DNA of 64,000 nucleotides from Nitrospinota bacterium (GTDB taxonomy: Bacteria > UBA8248), in contig JAZAHK010000003.1 in assembly GCA_036231405.1 (NCBI GenBank), positions 128,001 through 192,000 of the forward strand, written 5' to 3'. The notes under the pieces are model-generated. The model did not search any database. It had not been told where the DNA came from and was given only the letters and a program-made list of their open reading frames with translations. Of the stretch, positions 57 to 64,000 are shown one piece after another. Positions within the stretch are counted from its first letter, which is position 1. Each line of letters begins with the position of its first letter. The position numbers and the translations under genes are program-made.

Positions 57-1966
57 GGAAGAACGCTGCGTATATGATCATTAATATCTATCAGATCACG
101 AGCAGCCTGAGTAATGTCGCCTGTGGTTAGTCCGCAATCCTCTCTCTGGAGGGATGGATTACCATGAGGAATGAAACGATCGGGAATACCTAGTATAGAA
201 ACTGGAATATAGCTCATCTTATTTTCAGAAAGAATTTCTAGAACACCTGAACCCATACCACCTATTTTTGTGCCTTCTTCTATTGTTACTATTCTCTTAC
301 ACAATTTAGCCAGCTCAATTATTTTCTTCTTGTCCATAGGTTTTACGAATCTAAGATTTAGGACAGAAGCTTGTATCCCTATCTCTTCCAGTTGAGAGGA
401 AGCCTCAACCGCGAGAGGAACCATTGGTCCTAGAGCAATTAATAAAACATCCCTTCCTTCCCTAAGTAATTCAGCCTTCCCAATTGGAAGACTCTTTATT
501 TCATCTTGTACTTTTACGCCAGTCCCAGAACCTCTACAAAAACGAAGTGCAGCTGGACCTGGGTATTCTATGGATGTAAGAAGCATGCTTTGTAATTCGT
601 TCTCATCTTTTGGAGACATGACGACTGTATTGGGAAGACACCTTAAATAGGCTATATCAAAGGCACCGTGGTGAGTTGGGCCGTCTTCTCCGACTAACCC
701 TGCACGGTCTATTGCAAATGTTACAGGAACATTCGTAAGACAAATATCATGGACAATCTGGTCGTATGCCCTTTGCAAAAAGGTGCTATAAATAGCGACG
801 ACCGGCTTCATCTTCTCTAAAGAAAGACCCGCGGCAAATGTCACTCCATGTTGTTCACACATCCCAACATCAAAACATCTATCAGGAAAAAGACTCTGAT
901 ACTCCACCAGTGCAGTTCCTTCCAACATAGCGGCAGTTACAGCTACTATTTTAGGATCCTTCTTACTTAATTTGATCATTGTATCAGCAAAAACCTTAGA
1001 ATAACTTGGAGGACCAGGTTTCTTTTTTAAGAATTTCCCAGTATCTGGGTCAAATTTTGTAACACCATGGTACGTAATTGGTTCGGCCTCGCTATAAGGA
1101 TAGCCATGACCTTTTTTAGTAACAACATGAACTAAATTTGGGCCTTGTAATTTTCGAACATTTCGTAACGCAGGAATTAATAAGTCCAATCTATGTCCAT
1201 CTATAGGACCTATATAACGAAAACCTAGTTCTTCAAATAAGATCCCAGGAACAAATAAATTTTTCATAGAATCTTCAAATCTTGTCATAAAGTTGGCTGC
1301 AGATTCACCAAAAACAGGGAAATGAGAAACAATTTTTTGTATTTCATTCCTAAACTTCCTTGCACGATTTGCCCATTCTCCGGTCATAATTCTTGCAAGA
1401 TAAGAACACATTGCACCGACATTTTTTGAAATACCCATCTTATTATCATTTAATATGACCGTTAGATCCCTCTTAGAATCACCAGCATTATTTAATGCCT
1501 CCATTGACATGCCAGATGTAAGACTTCCGTCACCGATAATGGCTACAACACTAAAATCTTCTCCTCTCAAATCTCTTGCAGTAGCCATTCCTGATGCAGC
1601 AGAAATTGAAGTCCCTCCATGTGCAACATTCATATGATCGTATGGACTCTCTAACCGATCAGGGAAACCTGCAATTCCTCCCCACTGCCTAAGAGTATCA
1701 AACTCAGCTTTTCTCCCAGTCAAAATTTTATGTGCGTAAGTCTGATGACCAACATCCCAAATAAGTTTATCGTTAGGAGTTTCGAAAACGTAATGCAGTG
1801 CAACTACCAATTCTGTAGCACCTAATGAAGCTCCAAGATGTCCACCAGTTTTAGAAGTAACACGAACAATAAACTCCCTTAATTCTTCTACTACAGAATC
1901 GAGTTCATTTTCCGATAATTTTCTAAGGTCACTAGGAGAATCTATTTTTTCAAGTTTTATCACCAT
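53..1966 (-). CDS. dxs: 1-deoxy-D-xylulose-5-phosphate synthase
   Basis: GGHLGASLG, WDVGHQ, GDGSLTSG..EALNN and DRAGLVGEDGPTHHG motifs. Confidence 0.98.
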   Translation of the reverse strand: MVIKLEKIDSPSDLRKLSENELDSVVEELREFIVRVTSKTGGHLGASLGATELVVALHYVFETPNDKLIWDVGHQTYAHKILTGRKAEFDTLRQWGGIAGFPDRLESPYDHMNVAHGGTSISAASGMATARDLRGEDFSVVAIIGDGSLTSGMSMEALNNAGDSKRDLTVILNDNKMGISKNVGAMCSYLARIMTGEWANRARKFRNEIQKIVSHFPVFGESAANFMTRFEDSMKNLFVPGILFEELGFRYIGPIDGHRLDLLIPALRNVRKLQGPNLVHVVTKKGHGYPYSEAEPITYHGVTKFDPDTGKFLKKKPGPPSYSKVFADTMIKLSKKDPKIVAVTAAMLEGTALVEYQSLFPDRCFDVGMCEQHGVTFAAGLSLEKMKPVVAIYSTFLQRAYDQIVHDICLTNVPVTFAIDRAGLVGEDGPTHHGAFDIAYLRCLPNTVVMSPKDENELQSMLLTSIEYPGPAALRFCRGSGTGVKVQDEIKSLPIGKAELLREGRDVLLIALGPMVPLAVEASSQLEEIGIQASVLNLRFVKPMDKKKIIELAKLCKRIVTIEEGTKIGGMGSGVLEILSENKMSYIPVSILGIPDRFIPHGNPSLQREDCGLTTGDITQAARDLIDINDHIRSVLP

Positions 1967-2041
1967 AAATAAGTCCTAACGTGATTGCTTCCTTACAAAA
2001 AATAGAACAAAAAGAATTTGCAGAGAAATAAAAATTAAAAA

Positions 2042-2971
2042 CTAGAGACTACGGCAAACCATAAATTTTGCAAGGGACTTCAAAGTTTCAGCATCTTTTC
2101 CAAAGATTTTCAAAAAATCTAGAGATTCTTCTAAAGTAGAATTAGCCATATCCCTTGATTTTTCAATCCCGTAATGAGACAAATAAGTAGTTTTTCCAGA
2201 AGCAAGGTCAGAACCAACTGTTTTCCCTAATAAATTTTCATCTCCATCATAATCAAGAATATCGTCAACAATTTGAAATGCTAGACCTATATGCCTTCCA
2301 AAATTGCTAAGTGCTTCTAATTGCTCACCATTAGCACCACCTAAAATCCCACCTATGCAGACAGATGCGCGGATCAATTCAGAAGTCTTAAGCAAATGCA
2401 TCTGCCTTAAAAATTCAGGATTCATTTTGATAGAATTTGACTTGATATCTAAATATTGACCGCCGACCATTCCTGATGGACCTGCAGCAGAAGATAAAAG
2501 TAAAATAGAATCTATCAATCTCTCCATCTCAAATTTTTCTTTCATGGCATTAGAAGACATAAGTTCAAACGCTTTAGTCAAAAGTCCATCTCCAGAAAGA
2601 ATAGCAGAAGCCTCCCCAAAGGCTTTATGGCTAGTAGGCTTTCCTCTTCTCAAATCATCATCATCCATTGCAGGCAAATCGTCATGTATCAACGAATAAG
2701 AATGAACGCATTCTATTGCGCAAGCAGCAGTTAATAGAACCTCTGTATCTCCTTGTACTGCCTCACATCCTGCTATACACAAAATCGGCCTAATTCTTTT
2801 GCCTCCATTTAAGAGGCTATACGCCATTATTTCATATAGTTCAGACGGCTCAGACCCTTCCTCAGAAAATAAAAGATTCAGTTTGTCGTTAACTCGTCTA
2901 CTCCATTTACTCATATAATCTAAAACATCGAATGATGACGACAACCTATTCTCCCTCACTTTTTTCATCAA
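2042..2971 (-). CDS. ispA: Farnesyl diphosphate synthase (geranyltranstransferase)
   Basis: GGKRIRP, HDDLPAMDDDDLRRGKPT, FQIVDDILD; located between xseB and dxs. Exact start uncertain. Confidence 0.93.
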   Translation of the reverse strand: MMKKVRENRLSSSFDVLDYMSKWSRRVNDKLNLLFSEEGSEPSELYEIMAYSLLNGGKRIRPILCIAGCEAVQGDTEVLLTAACAIECVHSYSLIHDDLPAMDDDDLRRGKPTSHKAFGEASAILSGDGLLTKAFELMSSNAMKEKFEMERLIDSILLLSSAAGPSGMVGGQYLDIKSNSIKMNPEFLRQMHLLKTSELIRASVCIGGILGGANGEQLEALSNFGRHIGLAFQIVDDILDYDGDENLLGKTVGSDLASGKTTYLSHYGIEKSRDMANSTLEESLDFLKIFGKDAETLKSLAKFMVCRSL

Positions 2972-3215
2972 AAGGTTTTATGGAAAATGTCCCATCATCA
3001 TCTATTGTTAGTTCTTCAATTTTTTTCTGAGCAAAATTCAACTGCTCTTGTGTAAATCTAAACAATTTCACACCTTCTTCATACAAAGAAATTGCATCTT
3101 CTAGAGTAAGTTCTCCATCTTCTAGAACTTCGACAATTTCCTCCAAACGGGCAGACGCCTCTTCAAAACTTTTTGGTGAACTCGAAGACGTTTTCCTCTT
3201 TTTAGAAGGACTCAT
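2946..3215 (-). CDS. xseB: Exodeoxyribonuclease VII small subunit
   Basis: SFEEA..RLEEIV..LEDGELTLEDAISLYEEG; coupled to xseA by an ATGA overlap. Confidence 0.95.
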   Translation of the reverse strand: MSPSKKRKTSSSSPKSFEEASARLEEIVEVLEDGELTLEDAISLYEEGVKLFRFTQEQLNFAQKKIEELTIDDDGTFSIKPFDEKSEGE

Positions 3216-4609
3216 TTTATTTCTCCTTTTGGGTTTATTTTTTCAACCGTACAATCCAATTCTCCGTCTGACAATTTAACTCGAATCAATTCTTGACTTT
3301 TTGCTTCCCGAACACTTCGAATTAGTGAATTATCCGACTTTCGATACGTTAAACTGTATCCTCTCCCTAAAATTGAAACCGGGGAAGCAGATTCAAGTCT
3401 AACCATCAGATTTTCATACTCTACATTTTTTAATTGAAACACTTTGTTAATACTGATATGAATTCTCCTAAAACATTCTTCAATTTTTTTGACTTTACTT
3501 GAGTGAAGGCTCAAAGGAGAGACAAACTTAAGTCGAGGGAAAATGGATATAACTTGGTTTTTGTATCTCGATAAAACATAACGTATTTCTCTAAGAAAAT
3601 TTGCATAAAGTGAATCGGTTTTTTGCTCTAGTTCTTCGATAAATAAGGAAGGCTCTTCTAAAATTCTCATCCTCTTTAGAAAAGCTAATCGGTCATTTCT
3701 CTCTTTAAAAATTAGTTTAATAAATCGTTCCATTTCAGAAGGGAATCTAATAAAACGTTCTAAAAAAACATCCCAATCCATACATACTTTTTCGGCCGCT
3801 GCAGTAGGAGTTGAAGAAAAATCATCTGATACTAAATCGGAAAAGGAATTATCTATTTCATGTCCAATTGCAGTTAATATTGGAGTCTTACAATTAGAAA
3901 TTGCACGAACAACAATCTCATCATTAAATGCACTCAAATCTTCATTACTACCTCCGCCTCTTGAAAGGATTATCAAATCAGCAGGAGTACCAATTCTATT
4001 TGCTTCTTCGTCAGCAGCTAAGAGAGCTTTTTCGATTGATTTTGGAGCGAACTCTCCCTGCACAAGAGTATGAATGAGTATTAATTGCACAAATGGAATA
4101 CGATTCGATAAAATTGGTAGCATGTCACGTAAAGCCGCACCTTCACGACTTGTAACTAAAATAATTTTTCTAGGCCTTGTGGGAATTTCTTTTTTCTTTT
4201 CTTTAGAAAACAATCCTTCTAATTCTAGTTTTTCTCTCAATTGTCTAAATCTAACCTCTAGCACTCCCTCTCCTAGAGGTTCAAGAGAGAAAATAGATAT
4301 TTGGAATCTTCCTTCACGTTCAAAAAGGGTAACGCTACATTTAACTAACACTCTCATGCCAACTTCGGGAGTAAAATTAAGATTCTTCCTTCTGCCTGAA
4401 AACATGACAGCATTTATTTTTGAATTAGAATCCTTTAAAACAAGATAGGCGTGGTTCGATGGATAAACTTTCCAACTTGAAATCTCTCCCTCCACCAGAA
4501 TATTATTGAATGCTTGTTCTAAATGAGTTCGAACTTTAGAATTTAATTGAGAGACTGTATAGATTTGATCTGCAGGGGTTTTCGAGGACCCTAATAAATC
4601 AATATTCAA
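3212..4609 (-). CDS. xseA: Exodeoxyribonuclease VII large subunit
   Basis: TVSQLN, VEGEIS, RGGGSNEDL..FNDE, IGHEID, STPTAAAE, ILGRGY. Confidence 0.96.
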   Translation of the reverse strand: MNIDLLGSSKTPADQIYTVSQLNSKVRTHLEQAFNNILVEGEISSWKVYPSNHAYLVLKDSNSKINAVMFSGRRKNLNFTPEVGMRVLVKCSVTLFEREGRFQISIFSLEPLGEGVLEVRFRQLREKLELEGLFSKEKKKEIPTRPRKIILVTSREGAALRDMLPILSNRIPFVQLILIHTLVQGEFAPKSIEKALLAADEEANRIGTPADLIILSRGGGSNEDLSAFNDEIVVRAISNCKTPILTAIGHEIDNSFSDLVSDDFSSTPTAAAEKVCMDWDVFLERFIRFPSEMERFIKLIFKERNDRLAFLKRMRILEEPSLFIEELEQKTDSLYANFLREIRYVLSRYKNQVISIFPRLKFVSPLSLHSSKVKKIEECFRRIHISINKVFQLKNVEYENLMVRLESASPVSILGRGYSLTYRKSDNSLIRSVREAKSQELIRVKLSDGELDCTVEKINPKGEIK

Positions 4610-26685: not shown

Positions 26686-27777
26686 TTATGGACCTACTAT
26701 TACTTCTCCTCTTTCTCCCCCAGCCACTTCCCCTATTATGGCCGAAAAAGAAGAACCAGTTGAAATCAACTGCTGCAGCATTTCCTCCGATTTTGAAGGT
26801 TCCACAGCAATGATTAATCCTCCAGATGTTTGTGCATCATTCAAAACTGCAATCATGTTTTCATCTAATTTTTCTGAGTAGGAAACAAAGGAACGAGTCC
26901 ACTCTCTGTTTCTTTCTCCACCTCCTACTGTACCAGAAACTGCATCGGGCAAAATTCCTTCAAAAATTGGAACATTTGAGAATGAGATTCTTGCGCTAAC
27001 CCCGCTAGCTTCAAGTACATTATGTAGATGCCCCAACAAACCAAAACCAGTTACATCGGTACACGCGTTCACTGGAAACTTTCTCATGACCTCACTGGAA
27101 ATTTTATTCAAAGTTTTCATAGATACAACCGCTTCATCAAAAACCCCTTCCTTTAATTTGCTATTTCCAGATATGAGGGCTTTAGAGATTTTTTTTATAG
27201 ACCCAGTTTTTTTGTTTAAATTTGTGACTATTCCTGTCCCTATTTTTTTCGTCAAAATTAAAATGTCTCCGGGTTTTGCTCCGTTATTTAGAATCATATC
27301 TTTCGGATCTATAACTCCAGTCACTGCGATTCCATACTTTGGCTCTTGGTCATCAACACTATGACCTCCTAAAATAACAGCACCCGATTCACGAACTTTT
27401 TCAGAACCTCCTGAAAGGATCAAACTTAAAATATCCATACCTAAATGACATGGGAAAGAAACTAGACTAAGAGCAGTAACTGGTTTAGCGCCTATAGTAT
27501 AACAATCGCTAAGAGCATTCGCTGCAGCTATCTGTCCAAAATCAAATGGGTCGTCAACGATTGGGGTAAAAAAATCAACTGTCTGCACAATTGCTAAATC
27601 TTCTTTTAATTTATAGACCCCAGTATCATCACAAGGATTTGTCCCGTAGATTAAATTTGGGTCCACAAATGGTTCAAATCCTGACAGTGCTTTTCTAAGG
27701 TCCTCCGGACCAATTTTTGAACCTCAACCACCAGCCTTGACCATGCTTGTCAAAAACACTTTCTTTTCGCTGTTCAT
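26686..27777 (-). CDS. selD: Selenide, water dikinase; selenoprotein form (U18), 363 aa
   Basis: Track ORF 26686..27666 (DDTGVY, DFFTP, GGHS, DVTGFGLLGH, DAQTSGGL) extends in frame to ATG 27777: MNSEKKVFLTSMVKAGG-TGA(27726..27724)-GSKIGPEDL, the SelD catalytic (C/U)xxK motif. Confidence 0.95.
27699..27711 (-). promoter_or_regulatory. Candidate bacterial SECIS hairpin of selD
   Basis: GGUCC-GGA-GGACC begins 12 nt after the UGA; G-initiated loop. Confidence 0.75.
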
Positions 27778-60548: not shown

Positions 60549-62525
60549 ATGAAAAAATTTGGCTTCCACACCTCCAGCATTACCTTTAAGGCTCTATGTG
60601 TCTTCCTCCCAATACAAGTCATTATTCTTGTTGCAGGATATGTTTTCGTTAGCGATTTAATTGTTCAAACAAAAAACGAACGGAAGGAAAAGTTTGCAAT
60701 CAATAGAAATTCACTAGAGAAAACATTAAAAGAAAATCCATCTTTACGACTCACAAAATTTAGTAACCCAAAAGACATTTCTGCTCCAAATACGTTCCCA
60801 ATTTTTTTGAGAACAAAGAAAATAAGAAGCGGGCCTGATATTCAATGCAAGGATCAGCAAAGCGCTTCAATGACCGATAGGTACTCGTACAAAAATAAAT
60901 TTAAATTTAGAGTTTCTATTATCGGAGACCTGCTCATCTTCTTCGGAGGTTTCGAAGGTTATGACGTACACTCTGAAGAACATTTCCTGAAAATCGATTT
61001 TTTAGATAGAAATAAAAATTCCTCCACAATTAAGGCTATTTTTGTAGCCAAAGATTCTGACGATTCTGAAAATCAAATTAAGCAAATTAAGGGAAATTTT
61101 GTTTTAGAAAAAGAAACAGAGTGGTCTATCAATCAAGACAGATCATATTGGAAAAGAAATGGAGCAGATGGAGAATTCGTTTATGGAACATTTAGTCTTT
61201 TCTTAAAAAGAAAGGAAATTCTTAGGAATATACAAAACATTAGATTCTCTTTACACGAAGACAATAATATCCTCTGCCAGACTTCTCCTAGATATAAAGT
61301 TTCCTTCTTCTTAACTGATTCGTTACAAGAAAAAATGAACAAGATACAACAAATGAAACATGGGATTCTATTTAGAGACTTGAATGAAAATATTATTTTC
61401 AAAAAAGAAGAATATAATCTACCACTTCGAGAGAGATTAGAAAAACAATCGTTTTTTGAATGGGTTGGAGAAAAAATTGTAGGTAGGCAAAAAGCTGGAC
61501 TACCGAGCGTGTGTGCTAAGTTGCAAAAAATCTTAAAGAAAAACCTAAGCGAATTATCAATGTGTTCATCTCTTTTCGATGAAACAGTTTACATCTGGTC
61601 CCAAGAGAGGAACTGGCAAAAGGAGAGCCTATACCCAATTTACAATATAGCAGCTATTGGATTTATAATCGTTTTACTCACGATTTTCCTACTCTGCAGT
61701 CTAATTTTTTATCTCAAAAATCGCTTGAGCAATTTACAAAGAGAAATAGAAAAACACGTTTCTAGCGACGGAGAAATTCTTCCAACCATAGAAAAAATGA
61801 AAGGTACCCAAAATGACGAATTAGGACTTTTAACAAAACTACTCCAATTAAGTTTTTTAAAAATTAGGGATCGAAATACATTTTATAGAAAAATGTCGGA
61901 TTTTCTAAGACACGAACTCGGACAACAATTCTCTAAATTACGTCTTAAAATAGCGAATATTAATTCTAATCCGGAACAAGTAGAAATCAATAAATCATTA
62001 ATAAAGACTTTAGAATTATCGGAAAAAACTCTCCAAGATTTCACAAGTGCTAGTAACATTATTTCCGCACTCAACGCAGGGAAAAGAGAACAGATTGATC
62101 TATGTTCGTTGATGAAAGAATTTGTCGAATATTTCGAAACACCCGATTCTAACATAAGACTAGAAATAAGAACGGAGAATGTTTTTGCAGAATGCGTCCC
62201 TATTGCACTAGAACGTGCATTCTCTTCTATATTTGAAAACGCAAGTGATTTCAGGAAAAAAGGCACAGAAATTACATGTATTCTAGAAACAAAAGATTCT
62301 GGGAAAAGAATTACTATAAAAAATGAAGGTAATTTAATTGATGAAAAAAATTTAACGAATATTTTTGATCTTGGATTTTCAATAAGAGAAACTCAAACCA
62401 AGGGAATACACCAGGGATTTGGTCTTTTCCTTGTGAAAGCAGTCATAGAATTTCATGGATGGAATATATCTGCAAACAACAACTCGGAACCTCCTGGGGT
62501 CGAATTTGTTATAGAAATACCCTAA
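60549..62525 (+). CDS. Membrane sensor histidine kinase
   Basis: Two TM segments around a large extracytoplasmic domain; HAMP-like DELG; RHEL H-box; ENA, NEG, IFD and GFGLF boxes. Confidence 0.9.
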   Translation: MKKFGFHTSSITFKALCVFLPIQVIILVAGYVFVSDLIVQTKNERKEKFAINRNSLEKTLKENPSLRLTKFSNPKDISAPNTFPIFLRTKKIRSGPDIQCKDQQSASMTDRYSYKNKFKFRVSIIGDLLIFFGGFEGYDVHSEEHFLKIDFLDRNKNSSTIKAIFVAKDSDDSENQIKQIKGNFVLEKETEWSINQDRSYWKRNGADGEFVYGTFSLFLKRKEILRNIQNIRFSLHEDNNILCQTSPRYKVSFFLTDSLQEKMNKIQQMKHGILFRDLNENIIFKKEEYNLPLRERLEKQSFFEWVGEKIVGRQKAGLPSVCAKLQKILKKNLSELSMCSSLFDETVYIWSQERNWQKESLYPIYNIAAIGFIIVLLTIFLLCSLIFYLKNRLSNLQREIEKHVSSDGEILPTIEKMKGTQNDELGLLTKLLQLSFLKIRDRNTFYRKMSDFLRHELGQQFSKLRLKIANINSNPEQVEINKSLIKTLELSEKTLQDFTSASNIISALNAGKREQIDLCSLMKEFVEYFETPDSNIRLEIRTENVFAECVPIALERAFSSIFENASDFRKKGTEITCILETKDSGKRITIKNEGNLIDEKNLTNIFDLGFSIRETQTKGIHQGFGLFLVKAVIEFHGWNISANNNSEPPGVEFVIEIP

Positions 62526-62571
62526 GTTTTTTCCTTTAAGTCACGGAAAAACTTCTATGTTCATAAAAAAA

Positions 62572-63114
62572 TTATTTCAAAAAACTTGCGATAAAGTCTG
62601 GATAGACTGCCTCAACCTTTTCCCTTATTTCAGCCTCTTCAGAAACGGCCACTGGATGCTGAATCGCAATAAATGGAAGTTCAAGGTACCCCATTGCCTT
62701 CTGTTGTGCTTTAGCAATTGCTAAAAAGGCGGTGGTAATAACACACACCGATGGAATCCCTGATTTTTCTAAATTTACCGCATCCCTGAAACTCCAGGCT
62801 GTACAACTACCTCATTCTCCAAGACCTGTAACAGCGGCATCGGCATGTTCAACAACTTGTTCCAAAATATCAGGTCTGGCTGGACGAGTAAAAAAAGGTT
62901 TTTTCACGTGTATAACGTCTTTAACCCCATTTTTTGCCTTGAGTAAATCTCCCATCAAAGAAAAATATTTATTGTAAGGCTGGAGTTTATTATTATCTAA
63001 AAAAACAATAGTCTTACCTTCAAGGGTATCCAGTTTAGATGAAACGGACCCTCCTTCAGGAAATTTTTCTGCCATAGGATTTAGAACAAAGAAATTACCC
63101 TTATCTTTTGGCAT
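62572..63114 (-). CDS. UGSC-motif selenoprotein (U101), 180 aa
   Basis: Read-through of TGA 62814..62812 gives ADAAVTGLGE-U-GSCTAWSFRDAVNLEKSGIPSVCVITTAF...IQHPV...FLK-TAA(62574..62572); ATG 63114 has a GGAG RBS. Confidence 0.9.
62785..62798 (-). promoter_or_regulatory. Candidate SECIS hairpin of the UGSC gene
   Basis: CCUGG-AGUU-UCAGG begins 13 nt after the UGA; G at loop position 2. Confidence 0.6.
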
Positions 63115-63133
63115 TTTTGCTATCTCCAAGCAA

Positions 63134-64000
63134 TTAGAAAATGATTTTCTTCGTGACTGCACGAGTTCCCCAACCAGGCATAAAAACTGTATGACGTCCT
63201 TTCCCACCAGCAACTAAAACTAAAATATCATCAGGAGTTCTAACTATAGGGATAAGTGTCTCTTCATTCTCTCGATCCACCCAGCGAGGCCAAAAATTTT
63301 TCTTATACTCTTTTCCATACATCCCATTATATTTAAGTTCACGAATTGGTTGCCGAGCATTTTCCCACAAAAAATATTTAACGTCTTTTTTTTTCCATCC
63401 CGCACTTGCAATACTTTCCGCATGTTCAGGACAAAGTACAACCATTGTATCCCCCATTACGTAGAAATTGTTATGGCCTGTCCCTTTCATTGCCCCAGCT
63501 ATCCCATACAAAATACCGAAAGGATCTCCTTCAGCATGGTTATTTACATTATGGGGTGGTTCACAAGAGTACGCGGTAATCGTACTTTCTTCAGAGTCAT
63601 AACCAAGATCAACATGTAAAGGATCCCATGGAGATTCCTCTTCATTTTCGGCAAAAAGATATGAAAACTTTCCAGGATGGCCAAAGGTCGCCTTATCTGT
63701 TTCTCCTGGTATTCCACCACCTAGATTCATCATGATAAGTCTCAATGCACGACCGATTGTTGCGTTTGCACGAAAACCACTACCCAAACAACCCGACTTT
63801 GAATTCACCCCTAGTTCATTGGCAATCGGGCCGTTGACTATAAATGCTGGCGTACTCATATGTGTTGTAGACTGTACACCTTGCAAGTTGAATTTTTCGT
63901 CAAGCATAGTCTTTAGACCGGCAACTACCAACGGCATATAGCTCGGGATACAGCCAGCCATAACGGCATTTATTGCAATTTTTTCAATTGTCGCACCTCC
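63134..64000 (-). CDS. Conserved uncharacterised protein, partner of the UGSC selenoprotein (5' end outside window)
   Basis: Frame is open to the window edge: GGATIEKIAINAVMAGC.., STTH, GFRANATIGRALRL, TFGHPGK, AENEEESPW; ends 19 nt before the UGSC gene. Confidence 0.8.
   Translation of the reverse strand, partial: GGATIEKIAINAVMAGCIPSYMPLVVAGLKTMLDEKFNLQGVQSTTHMSTPAFIVNGPIANELGVNSKSGCLGSGFRANATIGRALRLIMMNLGGGIPGETDKATFGHPGKFSYLFAENEEESPWDPLHVDLGYDSEESTITAYSCEPPHNVNNHAEGDPFGILYGIAGAMKGTGHNNFYVMGDTMVVLCPEHAESIASAGWKKKDVKYFLWENARQPIRELKYNGMYGKEYKKNFWPRWVDRENEETLIPIVRTPDDILVLVAGGKGRHTVFMPGWGTRAVTKKIIF

Follow-up and report, generated by a model that had tools for sequence, protein, structure and literature searches.

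What does a small selenoprotein of the UGSC family do, and does it act alone? The question is raised by a gene pair at one end of a 64,000-nucleotide (nt) stretch of DNA (the window) from a Nitrospinota bacterium (GenBank assembly GCA_036231405.1, contig JAZAHK010000003.1, positions 128,001 to 192,000). Here a short open reading frame (ORF) ends at a TGA codon, which can be read as selenocysteine (Sec, U) to give a protein of 180 amino acids (aa) with a U-G-S-C motif; a larger gene, whose product is called the partner below, precedes it on the same strand. UGSC and the partner are probably two subunits of one selenium-dependent oxidoreductase that is recycled by the thioredoxin system. A single selenium-dependent reductase is probable because UGSC adjoins the partner and is fused to it elsewhere. 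Such an assignment would turn the orphan UGSC into a testable two-component enzyme, with one partner family (at least 7994 relatives), an ancestry shared with the Grd/Prd selenoproteins of glycine and proline reductase, and fusions of the partner to thioredoxin reductase (TrxR) domains.

The UGSC gene and its selenocysteine codon

When translated with TGA as U, the minus-strand frame at 62575-63114 contains 180 codons with a single internal TGA, codon 101. Under translation table 11 the ORF terminates at ...GLGE; the TGA opens the motif U101-G-S-C104, and 79 sense codons follow it up to a TAA. The original prediction that the frame continues for these 79 codons past GLGE-TGA is borne out by the Pfam model of the family (PF24696), which matches residues 10-177 of the 180, spanning the TGA, with 146 bits against a cut-off of 25 (E 1.6e-42), and by conserved residues 3' of the TGA (D111, E116, G119, F130, and H153-P154). 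In an alignment of 25 UGSC members, K72, U/C101, G102, S103, and F130 are invariant, and conservation is 90% or higher at C104, D111, E116, G119, H153, and P154. Homologues extend past the TGA position and, as had been proposed as a check, some carry Cys at position 101: among UGSC genes that lie beside partner genes in other genomes, the equivalent codon is TGA in 68 of 71 and TGC in the other three. Each of the 150 UGSC matches listed for the phylum contains exactly one TGA. Among 150 representative relatives drawn from 1.84 billion proteins, 123 have C-G-[S/G/A]-C, a set in which Sec and Cys forms are indistinguishable because the search tool writes U as C.

Insertion of Sec calls for a SECIS (selenocysteine insertion sequence) hairpin, and a hairpin after the motif had been predicted. 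This claim stands for the family but not for the window taken alone, where the 45 nt after the TGA fold with -6.8 kcal/mol, no better than shuffled sequences (z -0.32), and 71 nt give z +0.5. The family analysis used 68 Sec genes (the window plus 67 loci) in an ungapped 48-column alignment. Over these genes, the 45 nt after the TGA have a mean folding energy of -15.9 kcal/mol, compared with -12.9 and -10.9 in two control windows from the same genes (Wilcoxon p = 1e-5 and 1e-7), and a mean z of -1.49. The helix formed by columns 14-21 and 27-34 has 81% of its cells paired, versus 19-49% for slid versions of the pairing. At pair 21-27, 48 sequences have C-G, 18 have G-C, and two are unpaired; the switch couples two third codon positions, that of a Cys/Trp codon and that of a hydrophobic codon two further on. 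The covariation score was reached by none of 500 shuffles. The window hairpin has four of the five core pairs in the family register; shifting it by one base gives five. Together, the alignments support a family SECIS hairpin at the same columns.

The source genome (2.09 Mb, 36.8% G+C, 48 contigs) also passes the check for Sec machinery that had been set for it: selA and selB lie on contig C6, the gene for tRNA-Sec on C3, and selD inside the window. The window SelD is itself Sec-containing, with one in-frame TGA, and shares the window with the UGSC gene. With a full-length Pfam match above the cut-off, a U/C-G-S-C motif whose TGA falls at the family Sec position, conserved sequence downstream, the family SECIS, and the Sec machinery, the small gene is a member of the UGSC family, and its read-through frame is confirmed as a genuine selenoprotein gene. 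"Hidden", as the gene had been called, does not hold in the sense of unknown: Pfam and NCBIfam already model the family, and its fusion to an unnamed domain was noted in 2008 (in the accessible part of PMC2398784).

What is known about the family comes from surveys, each cited here for its accessible portions. UGSC was described as a selenoprotein of unknown function in 2007 (PMC1976440). A 2008 paper counted 255 Sec genes and 21 Cys genes of the family in the GOS data; in metagenomes from oceans and freshwater, UGSC ranked within the three to five selenoprotein families of highest abundance. The paper also reported a fusion to an unnamed domain, "Unknown_1", which may be the partner, and suggested a "likely Trx-like fold" (PMC2398784), with which the model described below disagrees. 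A 2022 study counts UGSC among the prominent marine selenoproteins, with no COG or Pfam domain assigned in the text available (PMC9312934), and a 2026 review includes it among selenoproteins that are "largely uncharacterized" in function (PMC13188914).

Pairing of UGSC with a large partner protein

The partner stop codon occupies 63134-63136, and the UGSC ATG follows 19 nt further on, at 63112-63114. As originally described, the larger gene lies upstream on the same strand and its ORF includes the motifs NAVMAGC, RANATIGRALRL, GHPGK, and AENEEESPW. The complete gene in the genome (L001:5137-6180, minus strand) encodes 348 aa.

A survey of co-occurrence and fusion, which the original prediction had called for, links the two families closely. 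A partner alignment was used to scan one genome per GTDB species; at least 611 relatives were matched and 80 loci retained. At 71 of the 80, representing many phyla, a UGSC gene lies beside the partner on the same strand, downstream in 48 cases and upstream in 23; four of the nine loci without UGSC are cut by a near contig end (L024, L039, L063, L080). Five of the 71 loci have a single-frame UGSC-partner fusion that includes the Sec codon (L033, L041, L042, L044, L045; three of them translated), and the protein database adds two further fusions in Cys form (P0124, P0125) and a third that is degenerate (P0126). Of 51 genomes in the phylum, 43 carry both UGSC and the partner and the other eight carry neither, counts that are not independent because the genomes are kin. 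Per-genome maxima there are nine UGSC and 17 partner matches, and, among the 30 best UGSC loci, 29 have a partner gene within 1.5 kb. Four complete genomes together contain 20 UGSC genes. Of these, 17 are located no more than 220 nt from a partner gene, two of them in open frames of fusion size (542 and 555 aa), and the remaining three are separated by 2.7-5.0 kb from four partner genes arranged in a tandem block. These genomes hold 37 partner genes, of which 30 are clustered with UGSC and seven stand alone, more than 5 kb away. The source genome itself has three pairs, on C3 (the window), C33, and C18, all with the partner first and a TGA in the UGSC gene; the UGSC motifs are UGSCTAW, UGSCTLC, and UGSCSSC. 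The earlier proposal of a two-protein enzyme complex gains support from comparative genomics through the pairing at 71 of 80 loci, the co-occurrence in 43 of 51 genomes, and the single-frame fusions.

The tandem blocks are found at G014:C1:1430050-1434243 (L126:984-5252), G023:C1:383037-387213, and G035:C1:2943021-2947213, each at a distance of 2.7-5 kb from one UGSC gene. There are also single chains with two partner domains (for example, P0278 and P0284). Together, the tandem blocks and two-domain chains hint that the partner may form a homo- or hetero-oligomer.

Domain fusions provide the link to thioredoxin reductase. Among the longer homologues of the partner, 283 fall at E<=1e-10, of which 120 were surveyed for Pfam domains. 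In the 120 listed, the UGSC domain PF24696 is present in 78 and TrxR-type domains (PF07992 and related) in 24. All 24 have a CAxC motif in the flavoprotein part, and in 23 of them the partner domain is N-terminal. One homologue carries an AhpC/Redoxin/thioredoxin-like domain with CPTC, three carry other domains, and the remaining 14 match no Pfam domain; in at least 10 of the 14 a single chain comprises two partner domains. As separate genes, a TrxR-like cluster is found near the pair at four of the 80 loci and a DsbA-like one at three.

The partner belongs to a large family without a name. At least 7994 relatives are detected at E<=0.001 in a set of 5.8 billion proteins; the best 120 of these are 49-96% identical to the partner, and none of the 120 has a functional name or a Pfam domain. 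Their hosts include Nitrospinae/Nitrospinota, Tectimicrobiota, Chloroflexi, Methylomirabilales/NC10, Burkholderiales, and Ammoniphilus, among others, and the closest named relatives among the matches listed (77% and 65% identical) come from metagenome-assembled genomes of Nitrospinae/Nitrospinota. Neither the partner nor any of 24 aligned members matches a Pfam or NCBIfam model even at E<=1, a sequence profile search of the PDB returned 0 matches, and a search of the ESM Atlas found unnamed clusters only.

The AlphaFold2 (AF2) model of the partner (pLDDT 85.8, pTM 0.87) appears to have a fold without a solved relative. All of its top Foldseek matches are class I (Fe-S) fumarate hydratases, whose alpha subunit/Fumerase N-domain is the best yet a weak match (E 4e-4, probability 0.4-0.8, TM 0.25-0.30). 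In a VIA search the best match is a small chorismate-mutase/Rid-like subdomain (Z 7.3), and the fumarate hydratase 7xky_A reaches Z 5.7 over 184 residues with a root mean square deviation (rmsd) of 5.4 Å; both Z values are within the range that the tool assigns to common arrangements. There is no sequence match between the partner and class I fumarate hydratase, and the three cluster cysteines of the latter appear to be absent, only C77 and C175 being conserved in the partner.

No variation is seen at N139, R144, E178, or E180 across 83 partner copies from the 80 loci; 80 copies have C77 and 80 have C175, and R137 is found in 79 and H253 in 77. The window copy has L175 in place of C175. The MAGC cysteine (C77), whose distance from U101/C104 had been proposed as a check, is not universal: it is retained in 80 of 83 copies, the three that lack it carry C175, and each of the six copies that miss either cysteine retains the other. 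C77 is rejected as a universal, obligatory redox partner of Sec: it is replaced by Ala in L041, L042, and L080, and the fused UGSC of L041 and L042 keeps its Sec.

A Sec site was also considered, and rejected, in an orphan partner paralogue (L125:2251-3330, plus strand; G035:C1:2513317-2514294), in which a TGA interrupts the frame near residue 306, within degenerate sequence. This paralogue is probably a damaged gene because the TGA lies where conservation is poor and where the family has WPRW.

Kinship with selenoprotein B and the proposed reductase

An analogy between UGSC and the Sec subunits of glycine and proline reductases had been drawn loosely; profile comparisons suggest more, a remote homology in which Sec falls on Sec. 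Residues 89-166 of the window UGSC align with positions 334-411 of TIGR01917, the profile for glycine reductase selenoprotein B, with E 0.002, at 17.1 bits versus a cut-off of 602.2. Such sub-threshold matches recur among 25 UGSC proteins: TIGR01917 (GrdB) in 14 (best E 6.7e-6), GrdF in eight, PrdB in six, TIGR01918 in five, and GrdH in five. Every non-UGSC family matched by more than two of the 25 belongs to the selenoprotein B superfamily. An hhalign comparison of 60 UGSC sequences with 11 selenoprotein-B-like sequences of the window's phylum gives a probability of 92.4% and E 5.3e-7 over 96 columns, with the two Sec residues aligned, C104 matched to the Cys in the U-P-L-C of the PrdB-like proteins, and the H-P motifs in register. 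The 60-sequence profile also matches the single GrdF/GrdB-like protein of the source genome (E 0.013), again with Sec on Sec; UGSC residue 101 corresponds to TIGR01917 position 346, and the GrdF/GrdB-like protein has U346. Judged by these alignments, UGSC is a remote, minimal relative of the selenoprotein B (GrdB/PrdB) Sec domain. It is not a member of the selenoprotein B family because its scores are far below the cut-offs.

The comparison with known systems extends to gene organization. PrdA/PrdB, GrdE/GrdB, GrdG/GrdF, and GrdI/GrdH are likewise encoded by two genes, the larger subunit followed by the Sec subunit, and the UxxC arrangement of UGSC is that of PrdB (PMC2398784, in its Table 2). 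UGSC is considerably smaller, 180 aa versus about 240 for PrdB and about 435 for GrdB, and falls far short of their cut-offs (17 vs 602 bits). The larger subunits differ altogether: the partner is unlike the pyruvoyl proproteins of the Grd/Prd systems, and hhalign finds no relation between it and the GrdG-like protein of the source genome (E 0.92). The hosts of the UGSC pair, judged from the taxonomy of named matches, are Nitrospinota-like and other mostly aerobic lineages.

Two further sets of selenoprotein-B-like genes were noted. In the source genome, locus L127 (G000:C40:2327-6625) holds a pair of the classical type: a GrdG/FarE-like subunit is accompanied by a GrdF/GrdB-like selenoprotein of 434 aa, whose U346 lies in the sequence U-G-T-G and has no resolving Cys. 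This pair lies beside CoA-transferase genes, as the window pair follows a CoA-transferase gene. Relatives of the source organism (L132-L141; G014, G023, G035, G040) have several PrdB-like selenoprotein genes with open frames of 288-371 aa and the motif V-U-P-L-C; these proteins are intermediate in size, larger than UGSC and smaller than GrdB.

The AF2 model of UGSC (pLDDT 95.0) is a (beta-alpha)5 arrangement with Sec at the N-terminus of helix 102-117. Its neighbors in Foldseek and VIA are flavodoxin-, CheY-, and periplasmic-binding-protein-like, and no thioredoxin-fold chain is present among the 46 Foldseek and 50 VIA matches listed. Searched by sequence against the PDB, UGSC gives chance-level matches only (E >= 0.29). 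According to the model, UGSC would be flavodoxin-like, not thioredoxin-like, in contrast to earlier papers, which in the parts accessible assign no function and consider the protein probably thioredoxin-like (PMC2398784, PMC13188914). With the thioredoxin-fold UxxC/CxxU selenoproteins (Trx-, Prx-, and DsbA-like) UGSC has in common a UxxC at the start of a helix and a link to a TrxR flavoprotein. It differs from them in its (beta-alpha)5 model, compared with the beta-alpha-beta-alpha-beta-beta-alpha order and four strands of the thioredoxin fold, and in its obligate pairing with a large partner. The best structural neighbor of the UGSC model (m0954804fa296) is 8s7v_H, with Z 12.7 over 130 residues and rmsd 2.6. 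This is chain H of a methyl-coenzyme M reductase activation complex, and its score exceeds those of the generic flavodoxin/CheY-like matches, near Z 10, by about 2 Z units.

How might such an enzyme work? In the proposed mechanism UGSC would present U101 and C104 at the helix start of its flavodoxin-like alpha/beta fold. The 348-aa partner would bind the substrate, and N139, R144, E178, and E180, together with C77 and/or C175, R137, and H253, would contribute to an active site shared with the Sec loop. By analogy with PrdB, the selenolate would attack, or reduce, the substrate held on the partner. C104 would then resolve the adduct, creating a Se-S bond, and a TrxR-type flavoprotein, with or without thioredoxin, would re-reduce this bond using NAD(P)H. 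In PrdA/PrdB, Sec attacks a substrate held on the larger subunit, and a U151C variant is inactive (PMC11229817, in the part accessible). From the sequences we infer physical binding and joint catalysis of UGSC and the partner, as well as the role of Sec, the type of reaction, and the electron donor in the source organism. The many paralogous pairs (three in this genome) suggest several substrate specificities.

A broader proposal is advanced more tentatively, and we regard it as possible though somewhat doubtful: the UGSC-partner pairs may constitute a large, undescribed, thioredoxin-driven class, an aerobic/marine counterpart of the Stickland-type selenoprotein B reductases, in which a GrdB/PrdB-like Sec module docks on a new catalytic fold. 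Members would reductively cleave or reduce small organic acids or CoA esters, with paralogous pairs serving different substrates. If so, one of the most abundant environmental selenoproteins would gain its first function. In the literature that mentions UGSC, subscription journals lying outside the scope, no description was found of the partner family (beyond the 2008 mention of a fusion), of a kinship with GrdB/PrdB, or of TrxR fusions. The remote homology of UGSC with selenoprotein B, the flavodoxin-like model, and the tally of partner fusions (78 with UGSC and 24 with TrxR-like domains among the 120 listed) are new here.

Several observations count against the two-subunit reductase or restrict it. 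The window UGSC reaches 118.9 bits with NCBIfam NF041046, slightly below the equivalog cut-off of 125, and the SECIS covariation amounts to support, not proof, because the sequences are related and coding. Five of the 80 partner loci have ample flanks and no UGSC gene (L013, L025, L048, L089, L092). Because of such UGSC-free loci, and because partner genes outnumber UGSC genes, some partners presumably work without UGSC. No TrxR-like gene adjoins any of the three pairs in the source genome. A Prd-type mechanism is not simply transferable because the partner is unlike the pyruvoyl proproteins GrdE, GrdG, and PrdA, and the substrate class can be suggested only weakly because the neighborhoods are very varied and lack a third conserved gene.

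Other explanations must account for the same data. That the TGA is an ordinary stop, with a 100-aa ORF unrelated to the next 79 codons, or that the gene is broken, would agree with the end of the table-11 ORF at GLGE and with a window hairpin no better than shuffled sequences. It is already contradicted by the Pfam match across the TGA, the conservation downstream, the split of 68 TGA and three TGC among 71 genes, the SECIS covariation, and the complete Sec machinery, and we consider it extremely improbable. The pair could instead be an antioxidant/repair system and not a metabolic enzyme, in which UGSC would be the peroxidatic or disulfide-reducing component and the partner would act as scaffold, target, or regulator: UxxC motifs are characteristic of thiol/selenol oxidoreductases, UGSC is listed among redox proteins (in the accessible portions of PMC2398784 and PMC13188914), and of the 120 long partner homologues listed, 24 are fused to TrxR-like and one to AhpC/Redoxin-like domains. 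In the source genome, pairs 1 and 2 have VOC/glyoxalase genes nearby, and some 0.85 kb upstream of pair 2 there is an AhpC/TSA gene. However, as many as nine UGSC and 17 partner matches in one genome fit substrate-specific enzymes better, and the catabolic contexts (CoA-transferases, acyl-CoA dehydrogenases, hydratases, transporters) vary by locus. Moreover, the sole remote relatives detected outside the UGSC family, those of selenoprotein B, are substrate reductases, and the invariant N/R/E/E set of the partner resembles a small-molecule site. An antioxidant role is judged unlikely.

We give little credence to the possibility that the chemistry belongs to the partner, as a hydro-lyase or isomerase that depends on a metal or cluster, and that UGSC only supplies Sec/Cys ligands to this center or reductively activates it. 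Class I (Fe-S) fumarate hydratases are indeed the best Foldseek matches of the partner, with Z 5.7 for 7xky_A in VIA. C77 and C175 (each in 80 of 83 copies), U101, C104, and the third Cys present in many homologues (UGSCxxC) could make four ligands, and partner copies that miss one Cys retain the other. The fold match is weak, though, with an rmsd of 5.4 Å and a Z below the level that is informative for the tool; class I fumarase needs three Cys ligands in one chain, and the window pair, with L175 and W107, is left with C77, U101, and C104 only. Nor does Pfam or NCBIfam place the partner in any Fe-S or metal family at E<=1. For the two-subunit reductase, which we prefer, Cys-form pairs are found in cultured strains of Parapusillimonas granuli and Candidimonas nitroreducens, and because of these pairs expression in E. 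coli should be feasible.

Gene neighborhoods and other features

Genes around the pairs point loosely to organic (carboxylic) acids or acyl-CoA esters as substrates. In the window, a gene for a 438-aa protein of the acetyl-CoA hydrolase/transferase family lies 56 nt upstream of the partner on the same strand, and genes for a VOC/glyoxalase protein, a D-2-hydroxyacid dehydrogenase, and a short-chain dehydrogenase/reductase (SDR) are divergent from the pair. Genes for enoyl-CoA hydratase and acyl-CoA dehydrogenase come after pair 2, and pair 3 faces a gene like that for 3-hydroxyisobutyrate dehydrogenase. Neighbors were assigned by a Pfam scan of 46 of 55 cluster representatives. Left out were the partner cluster, clusters 1 and 4 (antisense artefacts of GC-rich loci), an overlapping UGSC fragment, and five short or overlapping ORFs. 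Over the 80 loci there are luciferase-like monooxygenases (13), NHL-repeat proteins (10), class III CoA-transferases (8), TctC receptors (7), FMN-dependent hydroxy-acid dehydrogenases (7), SDR proteins (5), and thiamine pyrophosphate (TPP) enzymes (5), and more rarely acyl-CoA dehydrogenases, enoyl-CoA hydratases, thiolases, and TRAP transporters. No third conserved gene accompanies the pair in the 80 loci; the commonest neighbor cluster is present at 13. Coordinates are collected in Table 1.

Table 1. Positions of the features discussed, in window coordinates unless a locus is named
Feature	Position	Strand	Remarks
UGSC-family selenoprotein gene	62572..63114	-	180 aa plus TAA stop at 62572-62574; translated with TGA as U
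In-frame TGA read as Sec (U101)	62812..62814	-	TGA in 68 of 71 homologous genes
SECIS-like hairpin	62778..62806	-	About 9 nt after the TGA; upper stem CCUGG/UCAGG, loop AGUU; from a fold of 45 nt
Ribosome-binding site GGAG	63124..63127	-	9 nt before the UGSC ATG (63112-63114); read from the sequence
Partner gene, C-terminal 288 of 348 codons plus stop	63134..64000	-	First 60 codons beyond the window end (G000:C3 to 192180)
selD, selenophosphate synthetase	26791-27753	-	TIGR00476, 334.7 bits; one in-frame TGA
L127, GrdG/FarE-like gene	112-1449	+	Locus coordinates
L127, GrdF/GrdB-like gene	1501-2802	+	Locus coordinates
L127, 3-oxoacid CoA-transferase-like subunit	2879-3829	+	Locus coordinates
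L127, 3-oxoacid CoA-transferase-like subunit	3795-4298	+	Locus coordinates

Two minor observations concern neighboring sequence. At L093:3395-3829 (minus strand), a 145-aa ORF matches PF01035, the DNA-binding domain of MGMT, over positions 2-51 of 81 only. The selenoprotein families listed in PMC1976440 (in the portion accessible) include MGMT, so this ORF too may be cut short at a Sec codon. In the window, the UGSC gene converges with a histidine-kinase gene (60549-62525, plus strand). The gap between them, 62526-62571, contains an imperfect inverted repeat, AAGTTTTTCC...GGAAAAAACTT, which could be a terminator shared by the two genes.

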